Source: an uncultured virus (IMG/VR IMGVR_UViG_3300047295_000025) (taxonomy: Duplodnaviria; Heunggongvirae; Uroviricota; Caudoviricetes; Schitoviridae). Taken from it: a stretch of DNA of 64,000 nucleotides. A model generated the notes under the pieces. That model did not search any database. It saw only the letters and a program-made list of their open reading frames with translations, and was not told where the DNA came from. Numbering within the stretch: position 1 is the first letter of the stretch; every line of letters starts with the position of its first letter. Location of the stretch: the IMG/VR virus record IMGVR_UViG_3300047295_000025; one strand, written 5' to 3'. Made by a program: the position numbers and the translations under genes. Positions 1,684 through 53,300 of the stretch are shown here, piece by piece.

Positions 1684-3507
1684 CTATCGGTCCAGATGCT
1701 TCTGGATTTGATCACCAACATCACCAGAGAGGCCGAGCGCGAGCCAGCTGACCTTGGCCTTCGACTTGAAGGTCTTCAGGGCTTGGGCAGCTGTTCTTTT
1801 TCCGTCGAGCGACTTGGCGTTGCTCATCAGGTTGTAGAGGCGCTTGGCTTCTTCCTGTCGTCCCGAGGGCCTCGGAGCCGACACTTCCGCAGCAGCTTTC
1901 GGAGCTACGGGCTTGGGAGTAGCCTTGACCGGCTCGATCTTCTTGGGAGAAGGGACCGGGGTGGGCTTCTTCGGAGCCTCGACCAGAGCCAGCGTGGCCT
2001 TGATCTCGCTAGCGACAGCATCGCTGTCGAAGCCGAGTTTGGACCAGCCAACTTTGGCTGTCTTCTTGAAGTCCAGCAGTTGCTGGGCAGCAGTCTGACG
2101 GTGTTCGAGAGTTGTGCCTTTGGACATGACTTCGTAGAGGTCTTGAGCACGCTTCTCACGGGCAGATCCGCCCTGAACCTTGGGCTTGTCAGCCACAGGA
2201 GCAGGTGTCGGAACCTGTTTGGCAGCCACAGCTTGAGCTGCGACAGCCTTCGGATCGGTTCCAGTAGCCTTGAGGTCGTCCAGTGCAACAGCACGGGGCT
2301 GCTCAACGCTACGAGCTTCGGCTTTCGAACGCAGAGGTTCGATGGCAGCCAGTGCCTTGATCTGGATCCCACCACCGTAGGGTTCGGTGACCCTGACCTC
2401 TTCCAGACGACCAACATGGTCGCCTGCAATGGCCTTGCCGAGGAGGATTTGAGCAGCATCGCTGTCCGTCATAGGACGGTTGTTGCGAAGCTTCTGGTGA
2501 TCTTCAGGGCTGATCCTGGCGATGATGTGGTAGGCGCAGACACGAACCTTGTTCGGATCATTGTGGGGCACAGTGATCACGTCTTCAGGCTCGATTTTGC
2601 AGAGGACCAGCACGTCACCGGGGAATTCCCGGATGTAGCCACGACGAGCGATGTGGAGGCCGTTGGAGCATTCGTTCCGACGGTTCTTGTCCACCAGACT
2701 TTCGTCCACCACGAGACGAGATCCGACCCGTTGGGGGATTTTGCCGCTGTGGCAGTCGAAGAAGGTACCCGGAGCCTCAGGGTACAGAGAACCCTTGGAT
2801 CGAGTGCTGAGCACCTTGTAGGCCAGAATGGACCCATCGTCAGCGATAGGCAGGTCGCCTCGTTCGAGGAAGCGAAGCAGGTCTTCCACGGAGTGTCCGC
2901 GTTTTTCCTGCATGGCTGCCATGCGTTCGATCAGGCGTTGGAGACCCTTGTATTGGCCAGTCCGCTGAGCATGGGCAACCTGACCCTTCAGGTTCTCCAT
3001 CCCAGGAACGGCTTTGCCACCGACGACAGCGACAATGGTCTCGCCGTCTTGAAGGGTGCTGTCGTCCTTGGACATAGGACGAGCATGGGTCATGAGACCT
3101 TCGCCCAGCTTCGGAGCTTTACGAGGCTCCTCGACCGGCTTGGCAGCCTGCTTCTGCTCAGCGTTCTGCATGACAGCAGCAGCGGTGGTCTGACTGCCGG
3201 GAATGGTACCAGCAGCCACAGGAGCGACACGATCTTCATCGGTGGAGAAGAGGTGTTTCACCTTGTCCTTGGCGACACGGAAGAACTTCATCAGCCCTCC
3301 GGTCTTCTTTTCGAGATCCACATAGGTGGAAGTCTCGGAGTCATCGACTTCAGCGAAGCCGTAACGGTTGATCAGAGGGATGATCTTGTCCACGATCCCA
3401 CGGATGCGGGTGTCGCCTTGCTTCAGCACAACGGTTTCGCCGTTGGGCTTGTACAAGGTCAGCTCGTCCTCAGTGAGAACTGCTGCGACGACCTTGATTT
3501 TGGCCAT
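1684..3507 (-). CDS. rIIB: rIIB-like protein
   Basis: Start MAKIKV at 3507 after AAGGA; LPIADDGSILAYK, NECSNGLH and KVRVCAY motifs; follows rIIA. Confidence 0.88.
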   Translation of the reverse strand: MAKIKVVAAVLTEDELTLYKPNGETVVLKQGDTRIRGIVDKIIPLINRYGFAEVDDSETSTYVDLEKKTGGLMKFFRVAKDKVKHLFSTDEDRVAPVAAGTIPGSQTTAAAVMQNAEQKQAAKPVEEPRKAPKLGEGLMTHARPMSKDDSTLQDGETIVAVVGGKAVPGMENLKGQVAHAQRTGQYKGLQRLIERMAAMQEKRGHSVEDLLRFLERGDLPIADDGSILAYKVLSTRSKGSLYPEAPGTFFDCHSGKIPQRVGSRLVVDESLVDKNRRNECSNGLHIARRGYIREFPGDVLVLCKIEPEDVITVPHNDPNKVRVCAYHIIARISPEDHQKLRNNRPMTDSDAAQILLGKAIAGDHVGRLEEVRVTEPYGGGIQIKALAAIEPLRSKAEARSVEQPRAVALDDLKATGTDPKAVAAQAVAAKQVPTPAPVADKPKVQGGSAREKRAQDLYEVMSKGTTLEHRQTAAQQLLDFKKTAKVGWSKLGFDSDAVASEIKATLALVEAPKKPTPVPSPKKIEPVKATPKPVAPKAAAEVSAPRPSGRQEEAKRLYNLMSNAKSLDGKRTAAQALKTFKSKAKVSWLALGLSGDVGDQIQKHLDR

Positions 3508-14228: not shown

Positions 14229-15431
14229 TTAGGACAGTGCGTAGTTGGTGTCGGTGATCTGCTTGTGCAGCGAGGGAGTCAGTTTCCCGATGGTCACTTT
14301 CTTTCTGACGATCTGGCTGATCATGAAGCTGAGCAGGTTGCTCTTGGCGATCAGAGCCAGTTGGAGGTTATATTGACGGCGGAGGTCGTTGCCATAGTGG
14401 GGCAAGCAGCGGAAGCAGTCATGGATTGAGACGACCTTGAAGGGTCGCTTGGGCATGGACTCGATCAGGTCGATCACTGGAGTACGGTCGATCATATCGA
14501 CGTTCTGGGTAGTGATGTAGTCAAGGATCCGAGCTGAGAGATAGCCCGAGGCCTTGTAGTGGTTCCACAGGTTCATCAGCATAACATCCTTCTCAAGATC
14601 TGAAGGGCCAGCTTCTGCATCCCGAGCTAGGATGTTGAGCACGTCGATGACTTGATCACGATCATAGTCACAGCGACGAGTCATCTCACGGACCACCATT
14701 CCATCGATACTGTGGATGGTGTTGGCTCCGAGAGAACGGCCTTCTGCCATAGGGGCATTGACCTTGGTGTAGATGTCGATGGGTCGGTCGAGGACGTGTA
14801 TGACTTCCTTGGCCCGAGCCATGACTTTGATTTTGACGTGGAAGTTATCAGGCAGCACCCAGTCGTGGCTGAGTGCAGTGGGGTTCCAGAGGCCAAGCAT
14901 GGCCTCGTTGAGTTCCCAAGCTCCGGGAGCGAGGTCGTTCATGGTCTTGTAGAAGATGTCGAGGAGAGCACCTTCGCCGTAGACTTCCTTGGGCACAGCC
15001 GTGGAGCTATAGAGAGCGGTCATGATGGCTTGCTTGTTGCCTTCACGGTCGATCTTGGCAGTGCCACCAGTACGACGGATCATCTCTTGGTAGATGACCT
15101 CGTAGGCGTCTTCACGCTGACCAGTGTCCACGACATTGCAGAGTCGGGCAGCAAGATGGTCGCCCGTCAGGGCGGCCAAGAATTGCAGGCCCGACGATGT
15201 GGCGTCGAGGGAGATCATGTAGCCGATGGGCTTGCCATCTTGCACGTCCCGCCAAGCTTGGACGCCTGCATGGTAGAGAGCAGGCTCCTTGGCTTTGTGG
15301 AGTAGGTTTTCGAGGTTGTTTTCGTTGTTGTTGAACCACTTGAGACGTTCGTCCCAGCGCACTTTGTCGAGGCCGAAGTTCGAAGCGATGTCGATAGCGA
15401 GGTATTCGCGGCCAGTGAATGTCTGGAACAT
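14229..15431 (-). CDS. RNA polymerase II subunit RNAP2 (N4 gp16-like)
   Basis: T7-type motif A LDATSSGLQ, motif B RxxxKQAIMTALY, motif C SIHDCF. Confidence 0.95.
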   Translation of the reverse strand: MFQTFTGREYLAIDIASNFGLDKVRWDERLKWFNNNENNLENLLHKAKEPALYHAGVQAWRDVQDGKPIGYMISLDATSSGLQFLAALTGDHLAARLCNVVDTGQREDAYEVIYQEMIRRTGGTAKIDREGNKQAIMTALYSSTAVPKEVYGEGALLDIFYKTMNDLAPGAWELNEAMLGLWNPTALSHDWVLPDNFHVKIKVMARAKEVIHVLDRPIDIYTKVNAPMAEGRSLGANTIHSIDGMVVREMTRRCDYDRDQVIDVLNILARDAEAGPSDLEKDVMLMNLWNHYKASGYLSARILDYITTQNVDMIDRTPVIDLIESMPKRPFKVVSIHDCFRCLPHYGNDLRRQYNLQLALIAKSNLLSFMISQIVRKKVTIGKLTPSLHKQITDTNYALS

Positions 15432-15848: not shown

Positions 15849-16679
15849 CTAATTCACCAGCTCTCGATCAGCCAACTCGATCACTGCCTTGTTCCACGGC
15901 GTCCCTTGAGGGTTGACGTGATAGCCTTGGCTGTATGTGCGACCGCGTTTGTCGTATCGGTGGGTGATGTAGAACTCATTGCCAAGGCTGAGCAGCTTGG
16001 CCATTACGTCCTTGACGCTCCGACTGTATTTGTCGAACGCCTTGACCCGCTTGTTGAAGTCAGTGCGGGACTCGCCTTCCTTCACCTTGTCAAGGTTCTT
16101 CCAGCGCAGACGTACCATCATGGCCGTGCTCTGGTTGATACAGAACTTGATGCGGTTCAGCCGGTTGAGGTGATCCAGACAGACATCATCATCGTGATGA
16201 TTGTCCTTGAGGATCACTGAGCTGTCGTTCAGCAGGTAGCCCGATTGGTTGTTGGATCGGATCTCCTTGGGGGTGACGACCATAGGCAGAGGGAACTGGA
16301 AGCGATCCAGTTCCTCTTGGGTCTCGGGGCTGATGTCGTAGATGACGACGAACTGGTCGAGGACATCGTTGTAGTCCACGAGATCCAGCTCAGCTGCTTT
16401 CAGCAGGGCGTTGGCGCAGTCCTGAGCTGAGTTGAAGTGGTGATGCAGGATGCCCACGAGTGTGGCCATGTTGGTCCGCTTATGCAGTACCATCTGGATG
16501 AGCAGGCCGAAGCCGAAAGCTTCAGGCAGCTCGTGCTCCTTGAAGAACTTGGCGAAGTCCAGCCCGAACTGGGCTTTGGCTTCGATGAAGGACTCCCTGA
16601 TCCGTGGGATCAGTTGGTTCTTGGAGTAGAGGTGCTCTAGCTCGTACTGGAGGACGAGCTTGGGATCTACCTGTGCCAT
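15849..16679 (-). CDS. RNA polymerase II subunit RNAP1 (N4 gp15-like)
   Basis: YDKRGRTY (DxRGRxY), GYHVNPQG, FPLPMVV; start MAQVD after AAGGA. Confidence 0.93.
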   Translation of the reverse strand: MAQVDPKLVLQYELEHLYSKNQLIPRIRESFIEAKAQFGLDFAKFFKEHELPEAFGFGLLIQMVLHKRTNMATLVGILHHHFNSAQDCANALLKAAELDLVDYNDVLDQFVVIYDISPETQEELDRFQFPLPMVVTPKEIRSNNQSGYLLNDSSVILKDNHHDDDVCLDHLNRLNRIKFCINQSTAMMVRLRWKNLDKVKEGESRTDFNKRVKAFDKYSRSVKDVMAKLLSLGNEFYITHRYDKRGRTYSQGYHVNPQGTPWNKAVIELADRELVN

Positions 16680-16716
16680 GAGCACGGTTCCTTGTTCTTG
16701 GGTTGCTGGGGATATG

Positions 16717-16743
16717 AAAAGACCACCCCGAAGGGTGGTCTTT
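16717..16743 (-). terminator. Terminator with UUCG loop
   Basis: AAAGACCACCC-TTCG-GGGTGGTCTTTT. Confidence 0.75.
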
Positions 16744-16749
16744 GTGGTC

Positions 16750-17205
16750 TCAGGGGAATGTGCCCCAGTAGCGGTAATCCTCACCTTTCCGTTCGGGCAG
16801 GTGAGGTCGCCATGCGAGATCGAAGGAGCAGTTCTCAGGGGCCTTCATGAACATCGGAGCGATGTGTTCAGGCTTGAGACCAGCTAGTCCGCATCCAAGC
16901 TGAGTGACTTGGAACCTGAGGTGAGAGTTGGCTCGGGCGTAGCGGATGAAGTTCTCGACGTAGTGGTTGATGGTGAGGATGGGCAGGGTCTTAAGGAACT
17001 GGTCTTTGGTGGGTATAGCGAAGCTGTCCCCTTCATGACCGAATCCAACTCCCCAGACAGCCCCGTGTTGCAGTAGGGCGGCTCGCGCCGCCCCTGCCCC
17101 GTGGATGCCTGCCTCGTTGGATCCGAAGACGAAGATCATGTCTCGCCGGGTGGGTTTGACAGCAGGCCTGAGCTTGCTGGATGCTGATCGTTGGAAGACG
17201 TTCAT
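16750..17205 (-). CDS. Macro-like phage non-structural protein (A1S_2505-type family)
   Basis: IFVFGSNEAGIHGAGAA, FAIPTK, LGCGLAG. Confidence 0.75.
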   Translation of the reverse strand: MNVFQRSASSKLRPAVKPTRRDMIFVFGSNEAGIHGAGAARAALLQHGAVWGVGFGHEGDSFAIPTKDQFLKTLPILTINHYVENFIRYARANSHLRFQVTQLGCGLAGLKPEHIAPMFMKAPENCSFDLAWRPHLPERKGEDYRYWGTFP

Positions 17206-23617: not shown

Positions 23618-24031
23618 CTAGCTGGTATATAGAGATTTCTTTGAGGTAACTGGGGCATCCCATGCGAGATGGTCTCCCACAGTGTTCAGTCTGTCGAGAC
23701 TGTCTGCATCTCTGTGGATGATGTACCGGCCCATCTCTGGAGGGATCTGACCGTTGAGACGGTCAATCATGGAGTATCGGCAAGCTTTGATGGCTTCCCT
23801 GAACACCTCTTCCTCTTGCCTGTCGGTCATAGGCATCAGAAGATTGAGGGCTTCATAGACCATCAGCAGCTCTGTGGCTGGCATGAGGTCTGGTGTTCTG
23901 TGCATTTCGAAGAAGGCGAAGACTGTCTTCACAGACATGAAGGCATGATCTCTGCCTTCGAAGTATCGCCTCCCCCTGAACTCACGCTCTATTCTGTCGT
24001 ACCAGCGTTCGGTATCGATGTACCAGCGCAT
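23618..24031 (-). CDS. Hypothetical protein
   Basis: 137-aa ORF, AAGGAG RBS. Confidence 0.7.
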   Translation of the reverse strand: MRWYIDTERWYDRIEREFRGRRYFEGRDHAFMSVKTVFAFFEMHRTPDLMPATELLMVYEALNLLMPMTDRQEEEVFREAIKACRYSMIDRLNGQIPPEMGRYIIHRDADSLDRLNTVGDHLAWDAPVTSKKSLYTS

Positions 24032-24300
24032 GGCTGATCTCCTTGGTTCACCTCGAAGAGGTCGAGTTGTTCTGGGCCATCAGGCCATGAAGGATCGTCT
24101 TCTTTTGCCCACAGCAAGATTGAGGATGCTTGGATAAGGATCTTATTGAGGCGCTGCTCAGCCGTAGGCTCTTCAGGTATGCGGATGGTGCCTGTGCCTT
24201 CGCAGTGGATGCACCGGGGGCGTCTCTGATCTGCATCTAGGAGACCGGGCTTCTTGCCTGTCCCTGAGCAGCGAAGGCAGGTGTGATAGGTATGGGTCAT
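23989..24300 (-). CDS. DnaJ-type zinc-finger-containing protein
   Basis: CLRCSGTG and CIHCEGTG (CxxCxGxG twice); AGGA RBS. Confidence 0.65.
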   Translation of the reverse strand: MTHTYHTCLRCSGTGKKPGLLDADQRRPRCIHCEGTGTIRIPEEPTAEQRLNKILIQASSILLWAKEDDPSWPDGPEQLDLFEVNQGDQPCAGTSIPNAGTTE

Positions 24301-24321
24301 GGTGATCCTATGGGTGAAATC

Positions 24322-24349
24322 AAAAAACCCCGACCCTTTCGGGCCGGGG
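24322..24349 (-). terminator. Terminator of the tRNA cluster
   Basis: CCCCGGCCC-GAAA-GGGTCGGGG-TTTTTT. Confidence 0.85.
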
Positions 24350-24424
24350 CTTCGAAGGATGGAGGTATCAAGCTCCCGGCACCTTCCTGCCGCATCGAAC
24401 TCCATGCAAGCATGGTGTCGAAGA

Positions 24425-24501
24425 TGGCGACCACATCAGGATTCGAACCTGAGACCCTCTGCTTAGAAGGCAGATGCTCTATCCAGCTGAGCTATGTGAT
24501 C
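24425..24501 (-). tRNA. tRNA-Arg(UCU)
   Basis: Canonical cloverleaf GATCACA...TGTGGTC-G-CCA, anticodon arm TCTGC-CTTCTAA-GCAGA, GTTCGAATC T-loop. Confidence 0.95.
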
Positions 24502-24510
24502 TGAAAGAGA

Positions 24511-24646
24511 TGGTGTCGGGGAGCGGCTGGGATTTGAACCCGCGACCTTCAGGGGAGACTTTCCTGACGCTCTATCTGATCACATCGGGATTGGCGTCCC
24601 GAGGGAGGGTGATCAGAAGTCTAGCTGAGCTACGCTTCTACCCGAC
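24511..24646 (-). ncRNA. Atypical tRNA-like RNA (136 nt), CCA-ended, with D-loop hairpin insertion
   Basis: TAGCTCAG...TAGAGC D-arm, TCAGG/CCTGA arm, AGGTC variable loop, GGTTCAAATCC T-arm, GTCGGG/CCCGAC-ACCA end. Confidence 0.75.
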
Positions 24647-24794
24647 GTGTGAGGCGATCCAAGGAAAGGAGCTAAACTCGGACTTCTCACTGAGGCTGTT
24701 CTTAAAGACACCTGCCTCTGGTCTCCCTCCTATCAGCATGATCAGGAGGCTCCGTCCACCCGCGTGGCGTTGTCACCATTGCCATGCGGGTTCG

Positions 24795-24834
24795 TCATCC
24801 GCAAGCACTGCTGTTGCACAGGGCCTGTGGATAA
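24795..24834. promoter_or_regulatory. DnaA-box-like cluster
   Basis: Perfect TTATCCACA (minus, 24826-24834), TGTTGCACA (24812), TCATCCGCA (24795). Confidence 0.4.
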
Positions 24835-25010
24835 TCTGTATGTGATTGTTTTTGTAGGGGTTTTCTCTGTGGGATAGGGCGTAGCCCTATCTCCAGACAT
24901 GGGGGGTCCGTTTCTCTTCTCTACTATTTAGAGAGAGTCCCCTAGACGATTATCTATAAATGACCTAAACCCTAAATCCTCACCACGCAGTGAATGGACC
25001 CGGAGATCGC

Positions 25011-44336: not shown

Positions 44337-47300
44337 ATGCCCGATCCGTTCGAAATCCTGAGAAGCTACGCTGAAGCTCCGGCTGTCACGCCGCAGGATT
44401 ATTACAGAGCAGGAGCTGCTCAGGTAACGGGTGCTGGCCAAGACGTTGAAGACCAACGCACCCGCGATATGCGGACGATGAACCCTTACGACCTCATCAT
44501 GAAGTACGGGGCACAAGGCGTTCAGATGAACTCGGGCATCGCTGACGGTGCCCAAGATTACATGATCGACAGGGATCGTGTTCGCTCGAACTGGGAAGCG
44601 ACGAACGACACTGTGGTTGATGTGGCTCGTGGTCTTGTCAACGGTGTCGGTGGTCTTGCTGCACTGGGAACTTCGGTCGTAAGCCCTGAGGGTGGTGCTT
44701 ATCTCTCTGGCAAGCTGGACGAATTCAACAGGTTCTCTGACGAAGAGCAGTCTGCTGGACTGAACAGCCGCCGTGAGGCTTCTGGCGTTGTTCGGGAGCT
44801 GAACGCTTCGGACACTCGTCGGCAGTATGACCGTGAGATCGGGGAGGGTGCAGATCCGACCATCGCTCGGTTCCGAGAGATCGGGCGTAACGTCCTGAAC
44901 GAAGGTGCCTCGGCAATCTCTGATCCAATGCAATTTGGGTCCGGCGTCTCTCAGGGCGTTGGCTCCCTGTTTGCTGGTGGTCTGATTTCCAAGGCACTGA
45001 CTGGTGGCTCAGCTCTTCTGGGTGCCACTGGTCGTACTGCTGCTCTCATCGAGAAAGCAGCAATGCCTGCTGCCATCGGTGGTCTTGAAGGCGGTGGTGC
45101 CTACACCGGAACCGTCAATGAGATCATGGGCATGACCCATGCTCAACTGATGGAGAACTCTCCGGCATATCGCAGACAGATCGTTGAGGGTGTGTCTCAG
45201 GACGATGCTCGTCTGGCTGTTGCCAATGAAGCTGGTCAGATGGCTGCTGCAATCCAAGCTCCTGTTGGCGTGGCTACGGGTGCTCTGGTCTCGAAGTTTG
45301 AGGGTGCTCCCTTCAGAGTTGGCTCTCTCAGGGGTGCTGCTGGCAACATCGGTCGTGAGACTGTTGAAGAAAGCGTCCAGTCTGGTTCGGGTCAACTGGC
45401 TCAGAACTTTGCCATTCAACAACGTGCTGACGACACTCGTGAGCTGACCCAAGATCTAGGTGAGGGTATCGCTCAGGGTGGCCTGTACGGGATGGGCACG
45501 GCAGGTGTCCTGCAAACTCCGGGAGTTGCTGCGAGAACTGCGGTTGAGACTACGAAGCTTGCTGGCATGGCCGTCATGTACGGCGTGAACCGTGCTGTCG
45601 GTGCGTTTAATGCCCGGGTTGAGGGCAAGCTGGCTGAAGTGGAAGCTGAGTCTCCTGTGTCGGCTGAAGCCATGACGGCTGTTCAGGAAGAACAAGCTGC
45701 TCAGGCTCCTGCCACAGCTGAAGCTGTGAAAGCGGCCCTGTCAGAGACTGATCTTGCTGGCCCTGAACTGGGCAGTGCGAATGAGTATGTGGACCGTCTC
45801 ATGTCTGCTGCTCAGTTCGATCCTGCTGAGATCCAGACCCAAAGAAGCCCTCTGATTGCTGGTGCTCTGGAAGGTGCGACGAACCGCTTTGATGCTCTGC
45901 GTCGAGTGGCTGCGGTGGCTGCTGACACGAATGTCCCTGGAATGGGTCGTATCAGTGCTGGTCTGTACTTGATCGATCAGCTCAGGACGTATGACAACCT
46001 GCTGGGAAGCCAGCTTCGTGAGACCCTCGACAACACGCTCGACACCCATCCTTCGATGGACAAGCTGCGTGAGTTTGAGGCAGTGGTTGCCACGATCCAA
46101 AGTCACCCTGAGATCAAGACTGCGATCATCAGTGCTCTCGATGTCGAAGCACAAATCAACGCTGAACAGGTTTCCGATGAAGCGATCAACACCCCTGACG
46201 GCCAAGAAGCAGCTCAGGCAGTGGCTGGCATTGCCGAAGCTGCTGTTACTCAACTGGACGATCCGAAGCTGAGCAAAGTCGATCTGCTCGACAAGGTGGA
46301 CCCTGCTGTCAACGACATCGTGCTGTCTCACGCCTACCTCGGCAAGATCATTCTCACGCCCTCTCAGGTTCAGGCTCTTGAGCTGACCTCTATGATGGCT
46401 CGTGAGCGCCAGAAGGCCAAGGAGCAGGCAGAGAGCTGGGGTCTGTCCAAGATCCAGTACGTTTCCAATCAGATCCGTTCGGATCGTGATGACGAGAAAA
46501 TGCCGTCTGCTGTGAAGCACACGATGACGGTCCTCCGTGCTCTGCGTGCTGGTAACAGGACTGAAGCTGTCGAGCACATGAGGAACTTCCTCGACTTCGC
46601 TCAGTCGATGCAGAACAAACTCACCGCCATCAATGAGGCTCTGGCAAACGGCAACACGTCGAAATCCAACCCGTCGAAGTACATGGCTCTGGACCCTTCG
46701 ACTGGTGACTTCTTCGAGGCTGAGGGTGTCTGGGTCGATCCGAAGAACCCGGCTACGATCAAGTTCGCCCAAGAGGTGAGCCTTGATGCCCAGACTGTTG
46801 TGGTTCTGGCGAATAACCTGAACCTCCAGACCAAGATGAGCCTGCCTCAGGTGGAGATGGTTCAGTTGGATCCGGTGCTTCAGGAGATGGCTGATGTCAT
46901 CACCAAGCAGGCACGCAAGGCGAAGACCACCCCCGAGCAACGTGCTCAGGCTCGTGCTGCCGAGTTGGATGCTGCTGTCGCTGAGAAGAAGGCTCAAGAG
47001 CCTGCTCAGGAAGTTGCTCCTGCACAGGCGAAGCCTGTGGAAAAAGTAGAAGCAGAGCCTGATAGCTACCGGGATGGCGACTATACGTCTGAAATGTCAG
47101 ATGAGGATCTCGGTGTTGAAAAGCCCAAGACCCGTACTGATCTTGAAGCTGACCCCAGAACGCCTGCTTTCCTGCGTATCAGCCGGAGTGTGTCTGAAAA
47201 AGAAAAGGTGTCTGATCCAAAGGATTGGACGCCCGCTATGCGTAAAGCATATGACTCTGGGAACACCGCTGAGTTTTCTCGTCTTCGTGGCTACACTCAA

Positions 47301-50300
47301 CAAGAGATTGCTGAATACACTGAATACCTGAAGCAAGCAGACGCTTTGATCGAGGATTACGGGGTTGATTTGGTTCAAGCCCTTTCGATTGACGATTTGA
47401 TCGAAAACCCTCTTCCGGCCAAGGAAGCGGTTTCTGCCGATAGGCAGGAAACCGCTGACGAGCCGGTAAAGGAAAAAGCTCCTGAGCCTGATCAACAAGG
47501 TGTCGTGCCGAACACGGATGCTCCTGTGTTCGAGGGTCGCTTCGAGAAGCTGGCCACGGTGCGCGGTCTGAACTGGATGCAGAGAGCCTTCACCGACAAG
47601 AAGGAAGCTTCGACTCGACTGGTCGGAGTCGCTTCTCCTATGGCTGCCATCAGGGCTGCTCTGAAGAGCCAGACGGCCCTCTCAGGCTTTGTTGATGGGA
47701 AAGTCACCCACGACTACACTGGTGCCCTCAGCAAGGCTTACAGCGCCTTCCTGAGCCTTGGAGACAAGGTGAGCCAGACTGTTCGTGATCGGGTCAGTGC
47801 TGAGCTGCGTAAGCCTATAGGCAAGGGCGGGGAGATGGTCGGCAAGGTCATCATGGACGAGACCACCAAGGGTGAGTCGTCGCTGACTGACACGGCTGGT
47901 GCTCCGAACCGCTGGGTTCGTGGGAAGATCTTCAACCTTCTCAACGTGGTGGACAACAAGCTGGTGCTGAATGACGAACTGCTGGAAGCTGCTACTCTGG
48001 CTGCTCTTCAGTGGGCACTGGCTGGCAACACCAGAAGCAGCGAGCTGACTGACGAAGAAATCGGTGAGATTGTTGGTATGGATCCGGCTCTGGTCAGTGA
48101 CGCAGAGCGTGGGTTCTTCAACAACGGTATGGCTGCAAACGATGCCATTCTCGCTCTGTCGAACAAGATCATCCAGTTCTGGGGTGTCGAGAAGAACAAC
48201 AAGACCCCGATGGGTTACACGGACGGCATTCCTCAGGCAGTGGCTGCCGAGATGCTGTATGGCCTGAAGGAAGCTGGTCTGATCATCATTGACGATGCGA
48301 CCATCGCCAACCCGAATGCAGGTCAGTTGGATGCTGAAGGCAATGTCATCCCTCCGGTGAAGACCTTCAACCGTATCCAGTTCGCTGAGTTCGACGGCAG
48401 GGAAGCTCTGGAAGAGTTCCCAAATGCCATTGAGACCGCAGTAATGCTGGTCCCCGATCAAGTGAGCTTTATTGGCTCTCCGCCTACTTCCGTGTCTCCG
48501 ACCCAGATGCGTAACAAGATGGTGAAGAACACGCCTCAGCAGCTGAAGATGATCGAGAAGGCTCAGAAGACGCCATATCTACCCGACATGCAGATGGTGG
48601 ATATCTACCTTGGTCTGGGCAAAGAGGGTGTTCTGGAGCTGTTCGGTGCTGGTGCAGATCTCGCTGCTCAGCTTCTGAACAAGAACCACAGGCGTTCTCT
48701 GGAAGGCAAGAACCGCACTATCGCTGCTGCCTACGACCGTATCCAAGCGGTCATGAAGGAAGTGACGAACCGTGCTGGTGTTGACGGCAAAGAGCCGGGC
48801 GACATGGAGATCTTCTATGAGCACAACGTCTCGCGTGTGGGCCGTCTCCATATGGAAGGTCTGCACAACCCGCAGGCTAATAAACTCACTCGGGAAGCGT
48901 TCCTGCCTACTTGGTCAACTCTCGATCTGACTGATCGGAAGAACAAAGATCTCTTCTATCTGGCTGTTGGTCAGGCATGGGGGGTGAAGGTTCACAAGCA
49001 GTCGCTGGCTGAGACCCGCAAGGATGTCCAGAAAATGATGGGCAAGCCTGAGGTGGCTGCTGCCTTGAAGCTGCTGCGTGAATGGCTCGAAGGTGGCTTT
49101 GATTTCAGCGAAGATGATCTGGCGATCCTGAAAGCTGGTCTGCCTAGCCTATCGCCTCACTCGCTGCACGCTGGCGTCGAGATGGCCAAGTACCAGATGG
49201 CAGATGCGGGCCAACGAGCCGAATTCAGAACCTCGCTGTATGTCGAGGCTGACGGCGTGACCGATGGCCCGATCAACGCTCTAGTTCACATGGCTCCTGG
49301 ATCCTTCAGCCCTGATTGGTTGAAGGCTGTCGGCAAGGGTGGCCTGTTCTTCGGTCAGTCTGGAATGACCATGGACGAGTACACCGACAAAGTGGACCTG
49401 TATGGATCGACCCAGACTAACCTGAACGCCCATCTGGAAAGACAGAAGAAGGAGTTCAACAAGCCGAACCTGAAGGCTCAGTCGGATGCGATGTTCCGGG
49501 TCATGGAACACCTACTGGGTTCCAAAGCCGTCATGTTCGATGAGTCCACTGGTGAGATCACCATTGACCGTGGCGTGGTGAAGAACCCACTGACGGTGAC
49601 CATCTATGGCTCCGGCAAGAAGGGCATCGCCTCAAAGGTTACCGAGAGCCTGCTAGGTGCGTTCTATGCTGAGCAGTCGAGACTGGCACAACTCACGACC
49701 ACCATGCCGGGTGAAGCAGCAGCTCTGGAGATCTTTGGATCCAAGGCTACGGAGAACCCTACCCAAGCCAAGGCGATGTACGAGCAATACGTCAGTGATC
49801 TTCAGACCCTCACGAACATCGTCCTGATCAAAGGCAAGTCTGGCCCGTACACGGAAGACCGCACGAGCAAGACGAAGAAGTGGGACAACGACTACGTTGA
49901 GTTCACCTTCAGCCCTGATCAACTGGAAAACCTCCAGCAGAACGTGGAGTCGATCTTCGTTGACCCTCTGGATAGAGCCATCAAAAATGTGATCGGTGAG
50001 ATCAACAACACGACTGTTACGCTCCGTAGAGCCATTCAAGCACAGTCGATTGTGATGAAGTACGCTTTCCAGCGTGAGATCGAACGGCGACTGGAAAAGA
50101 AAAAGGAAACCGACCCTGACTACCGTCAAGGCGATTTCCTGTCTCAGGCTGAGCTGAACGAAGTTTACGCTTCGCTCAAGCACCTCAGTCCGCTGATCCA
50201 TACTGCGAACCAAAGCTTCCTGATTGGCAGCTCCGAGCGGGCTACGATCCCGGGAGCTGTGTGGGCACGTTCGGTCGATGGAACGCTGTCCTCCGAGGTC

Positions 50301-53300
50301 TCGGTCTATGGACCCACCAATGCTGGTGTGTCCGGCATTCCGGTCATGATCATCGGCCCAGGAGATGGTCAGATGATCCAGAATGGTTCGGTGGACCCTG
50401 AGATGCCCGACGAGAAGATGTTCGTCTTCGATGGGGTGAACTTCTCGCTGAGCACCATCGAGAAGGGCAGTGAGCTGATGAATAAGGCTGTCCACAGCGG
50501 ATGGCTGGAAAACCCTCTGGGTGATGTGGCCCGGACGTTTGACGCCTTCATGGAAGACGCTGATCTCACCAACATGAGCGAGCGTCAGATGAAAGAGTTG
50601 GCTAACGCTCTGTTCTCTCGAAAAGAGGCTGAAGCCTTCTTCAAGGGCGGCATTGCTCCCAACGCTGTGATCGGCATGTTGGCCGATGAGATGGGTTATG
50701 TTCGGAATGACCTGAATAGACTGAGCCAACAGACCAAGGCGAGAGCCGAGGTTCTGGCTGAAGTGCAGGTGACGGTTGATCACATGGCTTCAGCTGCCAA
50801 GGCTTACGTCAGCGAGGGCAGGGTTCTTGACGGGATGTCCGAAGAAGCAATCCTCGAATATCTGAACGCTCGCTTCAATGAAAAGCTGAGCGTGATCCGT
50901 AAGGAAGAGAACATCCAAGAGAACATCTTCTCTGATCTGGAAAGCGTGGGCGTAACGCACACGAGATCCAAGACCAGAGTGATCAGCACTGACCAATTGA
51001 CTGGTCTGGTGGATCAGATGAAGATTCCTGCTGACCAGAAGTCGATGATGATCCCGACGCTGCGTGCCCTGAAGAGCAAAGGCTACACGGTGGTCTTCGG
51101 ATCTCCGGCTGGAGCATCATCCTATGCGGTCCAAAACAACCTTCGTCGTATTGATAGTCGTCAGTCTGCCGAGCAGCAGACGCAAGGCTTTATCGTGTTC
51201 GGGGACAAGACGATCTACCTGCATACGCCGTCGTCTGAAACCCTGCTGCACGAGCTGATCCACGCTGCCACGCTGGAGAAGGTTGCTGCCTTCTACACCC
51301 AGCCTGAAACGCTGTCGGCTGCTGATCGTGATGCTGTGGCTCGGATCGAGGGACTGATGCAGGAGTGGCTCCTGTCTGAAGACAACCTGATTGAGTTGGC
51401 TCCTCAAGTTCGGAGATCGTTCGATAGTGCCAAGCAAGCTGTGGAAGGTCACCTGAACAACATCACTGGTCTGTCGGCCATGAACAAGGCTGCTGCCTTG
51501 AACGAGTTCATGGCTTGGAACTTGTCGAACAGTGATCTGATCCGTATCAACAAGCGGACCAACGTGAAGAGCCAGCTCTTCCGTGTGATAGGTGATGCTT
51601 TGGTTGCGCTGAAGAAGCTGATCTGGGGTGAGAGCAAGGCACCTTTCGTTGACAAGTCGATCTATTCGAACCTGGCTTTCAACACTGCCATTCTCATGAG
51701 CAGCACAAGGACTGTTCGTGCAGAGCTGTCCGACACTGTGCTCTATCAGAGCAACGCTTTTGGTCGTGATGATCGTCTGACCAAGCTGCGTGCTCAGTTC
51801 GACAATAAGGTGGCTGTGCTGATCAACGAGGTGGCTGACCCAATCCAGAAGGATACGGCCAAGAACGCTGTGAGTGCGGCTGTGCAGAAGGCGGCTGATG
51901 TTACCGCCTCCTTCCAGTCTCACGGTTTCCCGATGACGATGCAGGAAGCTTCGACTTTCCAGTCGATGGTGGCTGCGTTCATGGCTGATGCCGAGCTGAA
52001 CCCCGTCACGCTGAACAGCCTTCAGAAGATCTACACGAACGTGATGGAGCAGCTGTCGGTTGAGACCTTCATGAAGGATCCTCAGGGCACCGACCCGGCT
52101 GACCGTTTCCAAGCCCAAGAGAAGTTCAACTCTCTGGCTGGTGACTTCGGTCTGGAATACGACAGTGCTGGTCGTTCGACCCTGCTGCCTGCTTTCTTGG
52201 CTCTGGCCAACACAAACAACACGTTCCGTGCTGTGCTCGCTGACATCAAGATGCCGAAGACTGGCCTTGAGAAGTGGAACACGGTGGACAACGTGCTGAC
52301 CAACGTGGGTGTACTGACGATGGATCGTCTGGCCAGCACGATGGCTGGTGCTGATCGCAAGGCTACCAGAGTCACGGCTGCGATTGATGCCCTGACGAAT
52401 GTGCTCGCCCAGTCTGCCGAGGACCAGAAGAGCTTCGTGGTTCAGAAGGGTCTGTACAAGATCTCGGGAGCTGTAAACGCTGCCAACGACTACCTCGTAA
52501 AGAACGTGCAGGACTTCTCCAGCAAGGCGATTGACGTGCTGACGGATGTCCAGAACACCTCTTCGAACAAGGTCGTGAAAGACGCTGCTGCTGTGGGCAA
52601 GGTCATCGCTTCGGTGGTAAATATCGAGCGTTCTGACAGTGTGGCTGCTGGCCTCATGTCTATGCTGAACCAAGGTCGGATCTGGAAGCCTCTTCACGAT
52701 CTGGTGAATGAGTTTGTTGGCTCCACTGACGAGAATTGGGACATCACCAGCATGGTGAAGTCGGTGAAGACTGTGGTTCAGCAAGCTCGCCAACAGTTCC
52801 GTGAGCAGCTGCCTGAGATCATTGCTGAGAAGTTCAGCCGTGAGCTGGCTGACAACGAATGGACGGAGATGTTCATTTCCTTCGGTCGCACTGATCTGGC
52901 TTCTCTGAAGTCCAGCCTATCTACTCAGGAGATCTTGCGTCTGGTGAGCGACAACAACGCACTACTGGCTGAGATCAGCAGGATTGAGGGCCGGATCCAA
53001 GGATCTGATCCCAAGCGTTGGGCTACGCTCCAGCGGAAGTCGGACGAGCTGGCTCAGTTCATGATGCACGGCAAGGTGTCGGGGAACCTCCTCCGTAACG
53101 CCTACGCTGTGGCTCGCCTGTTCGGTGAAGCTGGTGTGATCAAGACGGGCGATCCTGATCCCCGTCTGGTCTCGGACATCGATCAACTGGTTTCCCTGTA
53201 TGCCCTGAACCTGACGGAACAGAGCACCAAGGATGCTATGGCAAAGCTGGTTGAGAATGAGGCTGAAGGCCTTGACTTCACCCTGTCTTATCTCGTCGGT

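Follow-up and report, generated by a model that had tools for sequence, protein, structure and literature searches.

Unexplained stable RNAs have been known from phage tRNA clusters since the T4 era, and the short inserts carried by some tRNA genes are still called enigmatic. In T4, the species 1 RNA (rnaC, 139 nt) and species 2 RNA (rnaD, 119 nt) are non-coding members of the tRNA cluster whose genes are annotated in the T4 record directly after tRNA-Arg and do not encode a CCA end; rnaC has, close to the 3' end, a T arm of canonical form, its fold is far better than that of its shuffles (z = -4.57), and both RNAs fall below the gathering score of every Rfam family. To our knowledge, no function has been assigned to either. 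A tRNA-like T arm and acceptor can also serve as a handle on a non-decoding RNA, as in tmRNA and the bacterial Y RNA YrlA. An engineered E. coli 'tRNA scaffold' has been outlined in which the tRNA machinery processes and stabilises a foreign hairpin grafted into a tRNA body (PMC3753655). The tRNA genes of Lak megaphages are described as carrying 'enigmatic introns' that are present in some relatives and absent from others (PMC6784885), and another N4-like phage (L040) has a tRNA-shaped gene of 101 nt whose 7-bp acceptor is perfect and which also contains a T arm, CCA and a 29-nt loop insert. In L040, and in the Lak genes as outlined in that account, the insert occupies the anticodon loop of an otherwise canonical tRNA with a readable anticodon.

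The locus described here lies in a window of 64,000 nt (the whole stretch of DNA analysed) from an N4-like phage (Schitoviridae) related to coliphage N4, and it contains a 136-nt element that is close to T4 rnaC and rnaD and to the insert-bearing phage tRNA genes. The T4 precedent had been raised in an earlier reading made from the letters alone (the sequence-only reading), and the T4 annotation and Rfam scores bear it out. With rnaC and rnaD the element shares its approximate size, its non-coding nature, its place in a phage tRNA cluster and its sub-gathering Rfam scores; it differs in preceding tRNA-Arg, in encoding CCA and in belonging to another phage family. Homology in sequence or structure was not detectable between them: at E <= 10, tRNA-Pro was the sole match in the T4 locus (L133) to a covariance model built on the element, and gap-permissive global alignments gave 64/85 aligned bases for rnaC and 46/61 for rnaD, both at low scores. 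The Lak tRNA genes, the L040 gene and the element all combine a tRNA shape with an insert far below the size of a self-splicing intron, and presence or absence of the insert among close relatives is common to the element and the Lak tRNAs as these are portrayed. Unlike the Lak and L040 genes, the element has its insert in the D-loop, a replaced anticodon arm and a re-registered terminal helix. Its resemblance to tmRNA and YrlA lies in the idea of a handle, the Rfam scores being far under threshold, and the engineered scaffold of PMC3753655, as outlined there, is synthetic and alike in idea only.

The element stands at the start of the early region and upstream of the genes for the N4-like RNAPII subunits, around the border between the early block and the end of the late block. 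A spacer of 9 nt (24502-24510) separates it from the tRNA-Arg that lies downstream, and a terminator-like hairpin closes the unit formed by the two (Table 1); the two proteins encoded downstream have no PHROG match. The minus-strand sequence, the ACCA end and the distance to tRNA-Arg are exactly as the sequence-only reading had written them. Before 42 crude ORF starts in the window, whose choice is rough, the Shine-Dalgarno-type words GGAGG, GGAG, GAGG and AGGA occur 1, 6, 3 and 10 times, respectively.

Table 1. Coordinates of the tRNA-shaped element, its parts and its neighbours in the window
Feature	Position	Strand	Description
136-nt tRNA-shaped element	24511..24646	-	Sequence, fold and helix probabilities; uncalled by ARAGORN/Rfam
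Outer terminal helix, 6 bp	GUCGGG 24641..24646 + CCCGAC 24515-24520, then ACCA	-	Mean pair probability 0.997
Internal loop UAGA + inner acceptor strand AGCG	24633..24640	-	AGCG pairs with CGCU 24522-24525
Two-tier D-loop hairpin, 43 nt	24575..24617	-	Single occurrence in the window
Anticodon-type arm, 5-bp stem UCAGG/CCUGA	24549..24567	-	Stem probability 0.92
T arm, canonical UUCAAAU loop	24526..24543	-	T stem probability 0.70
tRNA-Arg(UCU), encoded CCA	24425..24501	-	ARAGORN; Rfam tRNA 68.2 bits
Intrinsic-terminator-like hairpin + T run	24324..24353	-	13 pairs (8 G-C), then TTTTTT
Hairpin A, 80 nt upstream of element	24726..24749	-	10 pairs, one bulge, 3-nt loop
Hairpin B, perfect 8-bp stem, 3-nt loop (GTA on + strand)	24873..24891		Same intergenic region as hairpin A

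The anatomy agrees with that given in the sequence-only reading. The minimum free energy of the predicted fold, -51.0 kcal/mol, compares with -38.1 +/- 3.7 kcal/mol for dinucleotide shuffles (n = 200; z = -3.46), one of the 200 shuffles folding as well, and the cloverleaf of the sequence-only reading has -47.7 kcal/mol. The ACCA end (24511-24514) is encoded, and a 6-mer complementary to the six bases before it and located at most 34 nt upstream arose by chance in 260 of 20,000 shuffles (1.3%). The inner acceptor has a mean pair probability of 0.38 and the D stem one of 0.005, a weak prediction. The D-loop hairpin consists of a 9-bp lower helix (mean pair probability 0.92), a CCUCCC bulge (24603-24608), a 6-bp upper helix (0.97) and a 6-nt loop. 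The anticodon-type loop, 9 nt at 24554-24562 (AAAGUCUCC), is non-canonical. The claim that the D and T arms are tRNA-like holds for the canonical T loop and the D stem; the T arm contains a bulged A, or else a G.A mismatch with an 8-nt loop, and the D-loop of the window allele is without the canonical GG. The helices that are new relative to an ordinary tRNA (6-bp outer helix, 9-bp and 6-bp helices of the insert, 5-bp anticodon-type stem) are all perfect, about 30 bp of newly formed helices holding zero broken pairs.

The tRNA ancestry of the element can be traced. All 13 non-self matches among the 14 returned by its covariance model at E <= 10 are called ordinary tRNAs, the best being the tRNA-Ile of a related phage (L042; 33.7 bits), which is identical to the element at 62 of 73 aligned bases. 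The stretch AGAAGCG (24633-24639) aligns with the 5' acceptor strand of this tRNA-Ile, and at the 3' side the last 3 acceptor bases are replaced by 7 that pair with the leader 4 nt farther out, the ACCA end being retained. In this alignment the element looks like a remodelled tRNA that has acquired a new anticodon arm and a D-loop hairpin, had its terminal helix shifted 7 nt outward and kept its ACCA. A recent duplication of the neighbouring tRNA-Arg was considered and rejected, as that gene is absent from the 14 model matches (E <= 10) whereas tRNA-Ile, tRNA-His and tRNA-Pro of other phages are present.

The sequence-only reading had predicted that tRNA and RNA-family searches would fail on the element, and they did. 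ARAGORN at default settings called tRNA-Arg as the sole tRNA of the region, the one Rfam match at gathering scores was again tRNA-Arg, and no tRNA match at E <= 10 over 24300-25000 covered the element; neighbouring phage tRNAs score 50-75 bits in Rfam. With the insert deleted in silico, the element was still uncalled by ARAGORN (default) and Rfam, and it took a relaxation of ARAGORN to -ps90 to obtain a 79-nt tRNA-Asp(GTC) in the inner acceptor register from the insert-free sequence. On the native sequence, the sole call of relaxed ARAGORN was an intron-containing tRNA-Trp at -ps80, which is spurious. That insert-free tRNA-Asp(GTC) call, the encoded CCA and the bases of the core tertiary contacts, which on our assumed numbering are retained (U8, A14, G15 with C48, A21, G26 and the T-loop), would suit a genuine if unusual tRNA whose insert is removed or tolerated and whose product is charged and used in translation. 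We consider such a tRNA highly improbable: default ARAGORN fails on it, and the 7-nt loop with U33 and a purine at 37 that frames a canonical anticodon is replaced by 9 nt here and by 14 nt in a close variant (X3, below). Neither register gives the canonical 7-bp acceptor with discriminator and CCA, the inner one having 5 of 7 pairs, two A.C mismatches and no CCA in place, and the outer one having 6 bp and ACCA that lie 7 nt too far out, beyond a 4x1 internal loop. The D-loop, canonically of 7-11 nt and containing GG, is 54 nt long here and lacks GG where it is normally found; the T stem, canonically of 5 bp with a 7-nt loop, is bulged or mismatched. A D stem and a T loop do exist. Of the 13 matches that Rfam gave at E <= 10, none was to an intron family over the insert, and we know of no bacterial or phage activity that removes a 43-nt insert from a D-loop.

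Other known classes were compared and set aside. Group I introns of tRNA genes reside in the anticodon loop, and their catalytic core takes up at least some 200 nt; at 43 nt, sited in the D-loop and matching no intron family, the insert was rejected as a self-splicing group I intron. The 8/4 and 9/3 cloverleaf tRNAs, as outlined in PMC5389517, do not fit either because the helix of the element is interrupted and too long. The match to the tmRNA family (RF00023) extends over just 13 nt and scores 9.4 bits, where the gathering score is 47; the tmRNA mode of ARAGORN returned 0 genes, and the element is without a tmRNA-type tag reading frame. The Y RNA-like YrlA family (RF02553) reached 15.5 bits against 69 in a match that straddles the T arm and tRNA-Arg, and sub-threshold YrlA-like matches were also found over tandem tRNAs in other loci.

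With tRNA homology detectable and canonical features lost, the element belongs with tRNA pseudogenes and tRNA-derived genes, and it may be either an expressed non-decoding RNA or a scrambled dead tRNA. There is a substantial, if minority, chance that it is inert: a tRNA-Ile-like gene in a fast-turnover hot spot would have been scrambled by recombination and palindrome-forming template switches, any RNA made from it having no role, and would be carried along only because it sits between a promoter and a functional tRNA-Arg. Several independent lesions (the odd loop, the D-loop insert, the T-arm defect and the two A.C mismatches in the original acceptor) agree with such a history, as does the fact that tRNA finders and Rfam miss the element. 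Pseudogenes and fragments in phage tRNA clusters likewise combine tRNA ancestry with lost decoding features; unlike them, the element has intact helices, has gained new perfect ones and shows listed variation that spares the helices outside the insert. The roughly 30 bp of new helices without a broken pair, and a terminal helix rebuilt so as to keep a paired stem and the ACCA end, argue against an inert remnant. Intact pairing had already been advanced against a decaying pseudogene in the sequence-only reading: the helices are indeed intact and the listed variants change loops and insert only, but this is weak evidence, given a young lineage and the capacity of mutation by itself to create palindromes.

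Homologue searches elsewhere were negative, which is also what an inert remnant would lead one to expect. The nearest record (G001, a 42 kb fragment) contains no match to 24400-24950. With a 701-nt query against GenBank phages, the best 20 of 1237 records cover only positions 453-585, that is, the 3' end of the element and tRNA-Arg; with a 156-nt query at E <= 10, 98 records were returned, and none of the 40 listed covers more than 24%. A megablast search with a 10-kb query retrieved terminase-region relatives only. Exact-pattern scans of IMG/VR (two stretches of the element, and the hairpin with free loops) found nothing, nor did a hairpin-pattern scan of GTDB genomes. Anchoring on terminase yielded 51 related loci, with the element in none; anchoring on thyA yielded 80 loci, none of them close since the best is only 59% identical; and a scan of metagenome contigs with the zinc-finger protein as anchor returned a single irrelevant locus, L132. 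GenBank phages, IMG/VR, GTDB genomes and the 51 related loci yielded no homologue; covarying counterparts of the element's helices, to which the sequence-only reading had looked for confirmation, were not found. The tRNA content of this region is itself variable, a further point in favour of a remnant: a tRNA is present in 9 of the 51 related loci, in differing sets, and the five loci that have both flanking marker genes (L003, L004, L014, L016 and L019) contain neither the element nor any tRNA between them. Our search of one collection of papers returned none on a tRNA mimic with a D-loop insert or on tRNA-like RNAs of N4-like phages.

Close variants were obtained as contigs of four public metagenome runs (X3, X4, X5 and X9) from four studies; X9 is without contig cover in parts of the stretch, including 24300-24419, and gaps there carry no meaning. 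Among the differences listed, natural variation is confined to loops and the insert. Within the element, the changes listed for the four runs are limited to the anticodon-type loop, position 28 in the D-loop, position 40 in the bulge, and the insert (RNA position p corresponding to window coordinate 24647 - p). None of them touches the D stem, either terminal helix, the stem of the anticodon-type arm, the T arm or the CCA, and the T arm has no listed change in X3, X4 or X5. The 43-nt D-loop hairpin, present and well paired in the window as the sequence-only reading had it, is not a fixed part of the element: at least 11 of its letters are missing in X4, X5 and X9 among the differences listed (about 25 going by the record lengths), the listed gaps falling in the 3' arm and upper part, with the 3' arm removed. 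In X3 the insert is unchanged. This allele is identical to the window over 24563-24729, yet its anticodon-type loop has been replaced by 14 nt between the same stem strands, which fold so as to lengthen the stem to 7 bp and leave a 10-nt loop containing CCUCC. Neither indel length (5 nt and about 25 nt) is divisible by three, indicating that no protein is encoded on either strand.

The anticodon-type loop is the hot spot of variation, the same 9-nt loop being altered in two lineages among the differences listed, and the adjacent 83-nt leader (24647-24729) has no listed change, which makes the loops more variable than the non-coding DNA beside them. Repeated hits on one loop, the sparing of helices outside the insert and the unchanged leader are not what an inert remnant would predict; the unchanged helices weigh little, because the run relatives are so close, and no compensatory change was seen within the element itself in the run variants. 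Large indels between near-identical strains are, by contrast, in keeping with a remnant, and so is the finding that X4 and X5 have another sequence in place of the 3' half of tRNA-Arg, a sign of recombination at this spot. The 9-nt spacer to tRNA-Arg carries 3 changes in X4 and X5. On the strand of the element CCTCC has a base rate of 0.00084 per nt; the CCUCC observation was made post hoc and has as its basis the window and one reconstructed allele (X3). Short repeats common to the element and tRNA-Arg or hairpin A (D1-D3, word matches) are at chance level for 7-nt seeds, and the complementarity of the insert 3' arm to the leader and 5' acceptor of tRNA-Arg (I1, 14/16) is marginal and is lost in X4 and X5.

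Compensatory changes are seen in the upstream hairpin A, which has 8 substitutions in X3, all inside the hairpin, with every pair retained and an identical dot-bracket structure; hairpin B shows no change among the differences listed in any run. In N4-like phages, extruded DNA hairpins serve as promoters (PMC4496689, PMC9163698), outlined in the latter as a short stem with a 3-nt loop and a start some 13-15 nt from the hairpin centre, G being preferred, with loops of 3-4 nt in early and middle promoter hairpins. Hairpin A has a 3-nt loop, 10 pairs and G residues 12 and 14 nt to the left of its centre (24737), and is a candidate either for a hairpin promoter of the N4 type or for a structure in the leader RNA. 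Given such promoters in N4-like phages, as those papers outline them, the compensatory changes nearby and the location of the element at the junction of the early block with the end of the late block, the element might itself act as DNA, either as a hairpin promoter or as a replication or packaging site near the genome end, its tRNA-like flanks being incidental. This seems very improbable to us, as the top loop of the insert is 6 nt against the 3-4 nt given in PMC9163698, an inner module of 25 nt lies within its lower helix, and three of the four runs lack part of the insert. Hairpins of the window also show no recurring motif or loop-type enrichment; G-N-A loops occur in 11 of 134, with about 8 expected.

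A decoy function and a ribosome-binding function, both put forward in the sequence-only reading, are conjecture. Phage tRNAs that counter tRNA-directed defences have been published, and the element could by analogy be a decoy for a host defence that cuts or senses tRNAs, its tRNA-like body luring the nuclease and the altered loop blocking or absorbing it. Its site at the head of the early region suggests that it would be made first, and its anticodon-type loop is the part most variable between strains, as an arms-race surface would be. That loop, of 9 nt (14 in X3) and with no U33, is nevertheless unlike any natural anticodon loop and mimics no known nuclease target, a 'GTC' anticodon is read by ARAGORN only at a relaxed threshold, and no defence or counter-defence gene was identified beside the element, the two downstream proteins having no PHROG match. 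We regard a decoy as improbable.

The reading we tentatively prefer, at a little under an even chance, is that the element is a tRNA-derived gene rebuilt into an expressed, non-decoding tRNA-scaffold RNA. Its sequence, fold statistics, tRNA ancestry and place in the gene order are matters of observation. The fold beyond chance, the perfect new helices, the re-registered 3' end and listed variants that spare helices speak for a functional RNA, together with a defined unit running from hairpin A to the terminator, its position at the head of the early block and the phage precedents. Weighing against it are the single young lineage, an insert hairpin that is not conserved, the imperfect T arm, the weak D stem and missing GG, and the need for relaxed ARAGORN (-ps90) before even the insert-free element is called. 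Given the observed gene order, the element and tRNA-Arg(UCU) may be co-transcribed as the first early unit, bounded by the conserved hairpin upstream and by the terminator. The host enzymes of tRNA processing would, in freeing tRNA-Arg, also release the element RNA, RNase P cutting 5' of tRNA-Arg and exonucleases trimming back to the encoded CCA, and the product would probably persist because its terminal helix, T arm and CCA mimic those of a tRNA. An anticodon-type loop of 9 nt (14 in a relative) without the frame of U33 and purine 37 would exclude it from decoding.

In such an RNA the tRNA body would act as a stable scaffold and the two add-on loops as the working surface. The first would be the D-loop hairpin, whose CCUCCC bulge lies beside GAUCAC, a combination that we take to resemble the 3' tail of 16S rRNA; the second would be the enlarged anticodon-type loop, which varies among close strains and contains CCUCC in one. 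The likeliest action, early in infection, would be either pairing of the C-rich loops with G-rich, Shine-Dalgarno-like RNA or capture of a tRNA- or rRNA-binding factor. Taken separately, each such role is unlikely: Shine-Dalgarno-type pairing or a sponge claims the largest share of the preferred reading, other roles together scarcely less, and a decoy against tRNA-directed defence clearly the smallest. More broadly, and as a doubtful extension, N4-like phages might turn spare tRNA genes into tRNA-scaffold regulators, the present one being the first RNA made from the entering genome, matured by host tRNA enzymes and bearing exchangeable, anti-Shine-Dalgarno-like C-rich loops that bind ribosome-binding sites or an rRNA- or tRNA-directed host factor, with strains swapping loops in an arms race.

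The element provides a compact test system for the unexplained RNAs and inserts of phage tRNA clusters, having a clear ancestry, defined remodelling steps and alleles that, as listed, differ only in the two add-on loops, and loop swaps or deletions in one phage would tell regulators, decoys and debris apart. Should it prove inert, it would be a record of fast tRNA-gene scrambling at an N4-like hot spot; if it is functional, phages would be shown to recycle tRNA genes as self-processing carriers of small RNA modules.

The 136-nt tRNA-shaped gene (the element) is derived from a tRNA, is highly structured and is unable to decode. Its minus-strand sequence, ending in ACCA, is identical to that set out in the sequence-only reading, which also placed it correctly 9 nt upstream of tRNA-Arg(TCT). 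The minimum free energy is −51.0 kcal/mol compared with −38.1 ± 3.7 kcal/mol for 200 dinucleotide shuffles, one of which folds as well (z = −3.46), and the cloverleaf originally drawn for it reaches −47.7 kcal/mol. The tRNA-like D and T arms of that drawing stood only in part: the T arm is present but imperfect (it can be drawn with a bulged A, or else with an 8-nt loop and a G.A mismatch), and the usual GG is absent from the D-loop. ARAGORN and Rfam, both expected to fail on the element, made no call over it. ARAGORN called tRNA-Arg alone in the window, and this was also the one Rfam match at gathering scores; at E ≤ 10, none of the 13 matches in 24300–25000 was a tRNA-family match over the element. 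The only matches there were to tmRNA, over 13 nt at the T loop (9.4 bits vs 47), and to YrlA, spanning the element T arm and tRNA-Arg (15.5 bits vs 69). When the insert, the 43-nt two-tier hairpin in the D-loop, was removed in silico, ARAGORN at default settings still made no call, and a 79-nt 'tRNA-Asp(GTC)' in the inner register appeared only at -ps90; that the element is a true tRNA is very improbable.

Features of the element and its surroundings, with the L040 gene in coordinates of its own locus
Feature	Coordinates	Strand	Description
Element	24511-24646	-	136 nt
tRNA-Arg(TCT)	24425-24501		
Outer terminal helix of element			mean pair probability 0.997
Lower insert helix			mean pair probability 0.92
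Upper insert helix			mean pair probability 0.97
Anticodon-type stem of element			mean pair probability 0.92
T stem of element			mean pair probability 0.70
Inner acceptor of element			mean pair probability 0.38
D stem of element			mean pair probability 0.005
Hairpin A	24726-24749	-	80 nt upstream of element; 10 pairs, one bulge, 3-nt loop
Second hairpin	24873-24891		perfect 8-bp stem, 3-nt loop (GTA on + strand); intergenic spacer shared with hairpin A
Intrinsic-terminator-like hairpin and T run	24353-24324		after tRNA-Arg
First early ORF	23989-24300	-	103 aa, two CxxC pairs
Second early ORF	23618-24031	-	137 aa
Two N4-like RNAPII subunits	15849-16784 and 14229-15431	-	rIIA, rIIB come next
L040 tRNA-shaped gene	1846-1946	-	101 nt; perfect 7-bp acceptor, T arm, discriminator A, CCA; N4-like phage

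A covariance model built on the element (R1) was searched against 589,854 bases, made up of the window, 51 terminase-anchored N4-like loci, locus L132 and the T4 tRNA region. At E ≤ 10 there were 14 matches: the element itself scored 176.6 bits, and the other 13 were ordinary tRNAs, led by tRNA-Ile(GAT) of phage locus L042 (33.7 bits), tRNA-His of L024 (32.7) and tRNA-Ile of L037 (31.8). The window's tRNA-Arg was absent from these matches, and origin of the element as a recent copy of its neighbour was therefore rejected. In a gap-permissive alignment, 62 of 73 aligned bases are identical to the L042 tRNA-Ile, the correspondence taking in the 5' acceptor strand, D stem, variable loop, T arm and first four 3' acceptor bases. 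Relative to this tRNA, the anticodon arm is entirely different yet has a perfect 5-bp stem, the D-loop contains the insert, the T loop or stem has one extra base, and seven bases stand in place of the last three acceptor bases. These seven pair with six leader bases, four bases further out, producing a 4x1 internal loop and then a new paired end with ACCA; so perfect a complement was found in 260 of 20,000 shuffles of the upstream sequence. Every helix of the element is intact, all newly made helices are perfect, and the rebuilt end keeps a paired stem and ACCA, all of which argues for a working RNA. The several lesions point instead to an inert tRNA remnant, and template switching can create palindromes without selection. 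The insert hairpin is unique within the window. A role of the element at the DNA level is quite improbable.

Part of 24300–25000 occurs in 20 of 23 listed public runs (15 studies), two of which may be the source sample. Four metagenome runs from four studies (X3, X4, X5, and X9) were compared, all of them contigs and hence uninformative on transcripts; differences in X3 are fully listed, those in X4, X5, and X9 are known in part, and alleles were seen as difference tables. X3 (record 8, 24458–25000) differs by 30 substitutions and 13 gap letters. Within the element, it differs in the anticodon-type loop alone (three substitutions and five inserted letters, 24553–24562), and it is identical to the window over 24563–24729; in the reconstructed allele the same stem strands enclose 14 nt, giving a 7-bp stem and a 10-nt loop containing CCUCC. 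X4 (record 9), X5 (record 19), and X9 (record 29) have common changes at D-loop position 28 and bulge position 40, and their listed differences include deletions of at least 4 + 4 + 3 letters in 24577–24590. By record lengths, X9 has 25 letters fewer over 24563–24768; X4 and X5 each contain 30 gap letters and are shorter by a net 20. Since the insert 5' arm (24608–24617) is unchanged in all three, the 9-bp lower helix cannot form as in the window, and their insert is probably about 18 nt long. In X4 and X5 the anticodon-type loop is altered too (three substitutions, at least one insertion), as are 3 of the 9 spacer bases before tRNA-Arg, and 61 nt (24392–24454; the tRNA-Arg 3' half and 32 nt after it) are replaced by 68 unrelated letters between identical flanks, which, judged from the sequence, is a mosaic exchange inside the tRNA gene. 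A further complementarity (14/16) links the insert 3' arm and D-stem strand (24570–24585) to the spacer and tRNA-Arg 5' acceptor strand (24494–24509); this alternative pairing, of marginal significance and lost in X4 and X5, could mask the RNase P site.

The element's strains differ in two add-on loops. Indels of 5 and ~25 nt mean that neither strand is under coding constraint. The terminal helices, D stem, anticodon-type stem, T arm, and CCA are free of listed differences in all four runs, although unchanged helices weigh little among relatives so close. The model search, suggested as a check for covariation, did not reveal any: at E ≤ 10, R1 matched, besides the element itself, ordinary tRNAs only, and no compensatory pair change was seen inside the element in the four runs. 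In favor of a working RNA, listed changes avoid the non-insert helices and recur, in two lineages, in one and the same small loop, and the adjacent 83-nt leader is free of them while the loop varies. Also in its favor, though as a post hoc observation, CCUCC-type motifs (base rate 0.00084 per nt) are exposed in both the window insert bulge and the X3 loop, and we take the C-rich motif to resemble the 16S 3' tail. We tentatively prefer, at somewhat less than even confidence, an expressed, non-decoding RNA on a tRNA scaffold. Within that reading, action by the C-rich loops, whether they pair with or sponge up a target, would be unlikely taken singly, other roles marginally more so, and a decoy, which we also list as a rival in its own right, improbable. 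An inert remnant is a substantial possibility, if a lesser one: near-identical strains are separated by large indels, three of the four runs have lost the insert hairpin, the locus is a turnover hot spot, and distant homologues were not found in the searches described next. The remaining probability falls to chance or other explanations.

Searches for homologues of the element were all negative. In GenBank phages, a 701-nt query drew 1237 records, the best 20 spanning only query 453–585 (the element 3' end and tRNA-Arg) and none covering 80%, and a 156-nt query (E ≤ 10) drew 98, with coverage of at most 24% among the 40 listed. Exact patterns gave 0 matches in IMG/VR for two element stretches and 0 for the hairpin with free loops, the hairpin pattern gave 0 in GTDB genomes, and blastn matches in 51 loci around terminase relatives were all ≤28 nt. 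In the five loci with homologues of both flanking markers, a 107-aa phrog_5020 protein and a phrog_2109 protein (L003, L004, L014, L016, and L019), the interval between the markers lacks the element and is devoid of tRNAs. tRNAs occur in 9 of the 51 loci, in 7 on the same strand and side as in the window; the sets differ at this equivalent position, which is thus a tRNA turnover hot spot. The element is confined to one young lineage.

The precedent of stable RNAs in the T4 tRNA cluster holds, since in the T4 record tRNA-Arg is immediately followed by two annotated RNAs, rnaC (species 1 RNA, 139 nt) and rnaD (species 2 RNA, 119 nt). The T arm of rnaC is canonical; fold z is −4.57 for rnaC and −0.83 for rnaD, against −3.46 for the element. 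Both fall below the gathering score of every Rfam family, so an Rfam blank does not make the element new in kind; homology to either was undetectable in the R1 search of the T4 tRNA region and by alignment. Lak megaphage tRNA genes are described as having 'enigmatic introns' whose presence varies among relatives (PMC6784885). A pattern scan for acceptor, T arm, and CCA over 132 loci and the window gave 27 hits, 26 inside called tRNAs, the 27th being the L040 gene, which has a 29-nt two-hairpin insert in its anticodon loop and is called by ARAGORN only with introns allowed, as 'tRNA-Tyr(ATA)'. The element is unlike all of these in its D-loop insert, replaced anticodon arm, and re-registered terminal helix. 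The motif GTGTCGAGGG occurs after AT-rich sequence at L037 ~72, L039 ~93, and L040 ~1953 and ~1807, all on the minus strand. Each copy stands immediately before a short structured region with a G-rich 5' end, in one case the L040 gene. In this clade the motif may mark phage promoters or start sites of small RNAs.

The window belongs to an N4-like (Schitoviridae) phage, its terminase region having ~74–75% DNA identity to Pseudomonas phage Zuri and Achromobacter phage JWAlpha. Right of 24990, rightward genes encode thymidylate synthase, the phrog_2109 protein, and terminase, on to a 3592-aa ORF (44337–55115, plus strand) that has the size of a virion RNA polymerase. Left of 24300, leftward genes comprise small orphan ORFs and then RNAPII, a succession that matches N4 early/middle order. 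As listed, the first early ORF overruns the terminator, and it probably begins instead at the ATG at 24300; the 103-aa and 137-aa early proteins had no PHROG match and no relative in 131 fetched loci, and a metagenome scan anchored on the nearer downstream protein gave one irrelevant locus only.

Hairpin A carries 8 substitutions in X3, all within the hairpin and all pairs retained, with identical dot-bracket structures for the two alleles (−13.0 against −16.4 kcal/mol). The X3 leader patch at 24767–24822 is heavily altered (~16 substitutions and several small indels); between it and the anticodon-type loop, 167 nt are identical save hairpin A. The N4-like phage LUZ7 is described as using hairpins for its early promoters, with a 3-nt loop on a stem of 4 bp or more and a start site, mostly G, 13–14 bp from the hairpin center; middle promoters are described as GC-rich hairpins ~15 bp upstream of the start (PMC9163698); N4 hairpin promoters lie on the template strand (PMC4496689). 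G occurs 12 and 14 nt leftward of the hairpin A center, so hairpin A is a plausible candidate for an N4-type promoter, or it may be a leader RNA structure. No recurring motif was found in the window, where G-N-A loops (11 of 134 hairpins) are not enriched. The second hairpin is unchanged in all four runs, with G 14–15 nt from its center on both sides. Given the gene directions on either side, the element and tRNA-Arg open a leftward, early-type block, in which the element, alongside a good tRNA-Arg, is flanked by a hairpin of conserved structure on one side and a terminator on the other.
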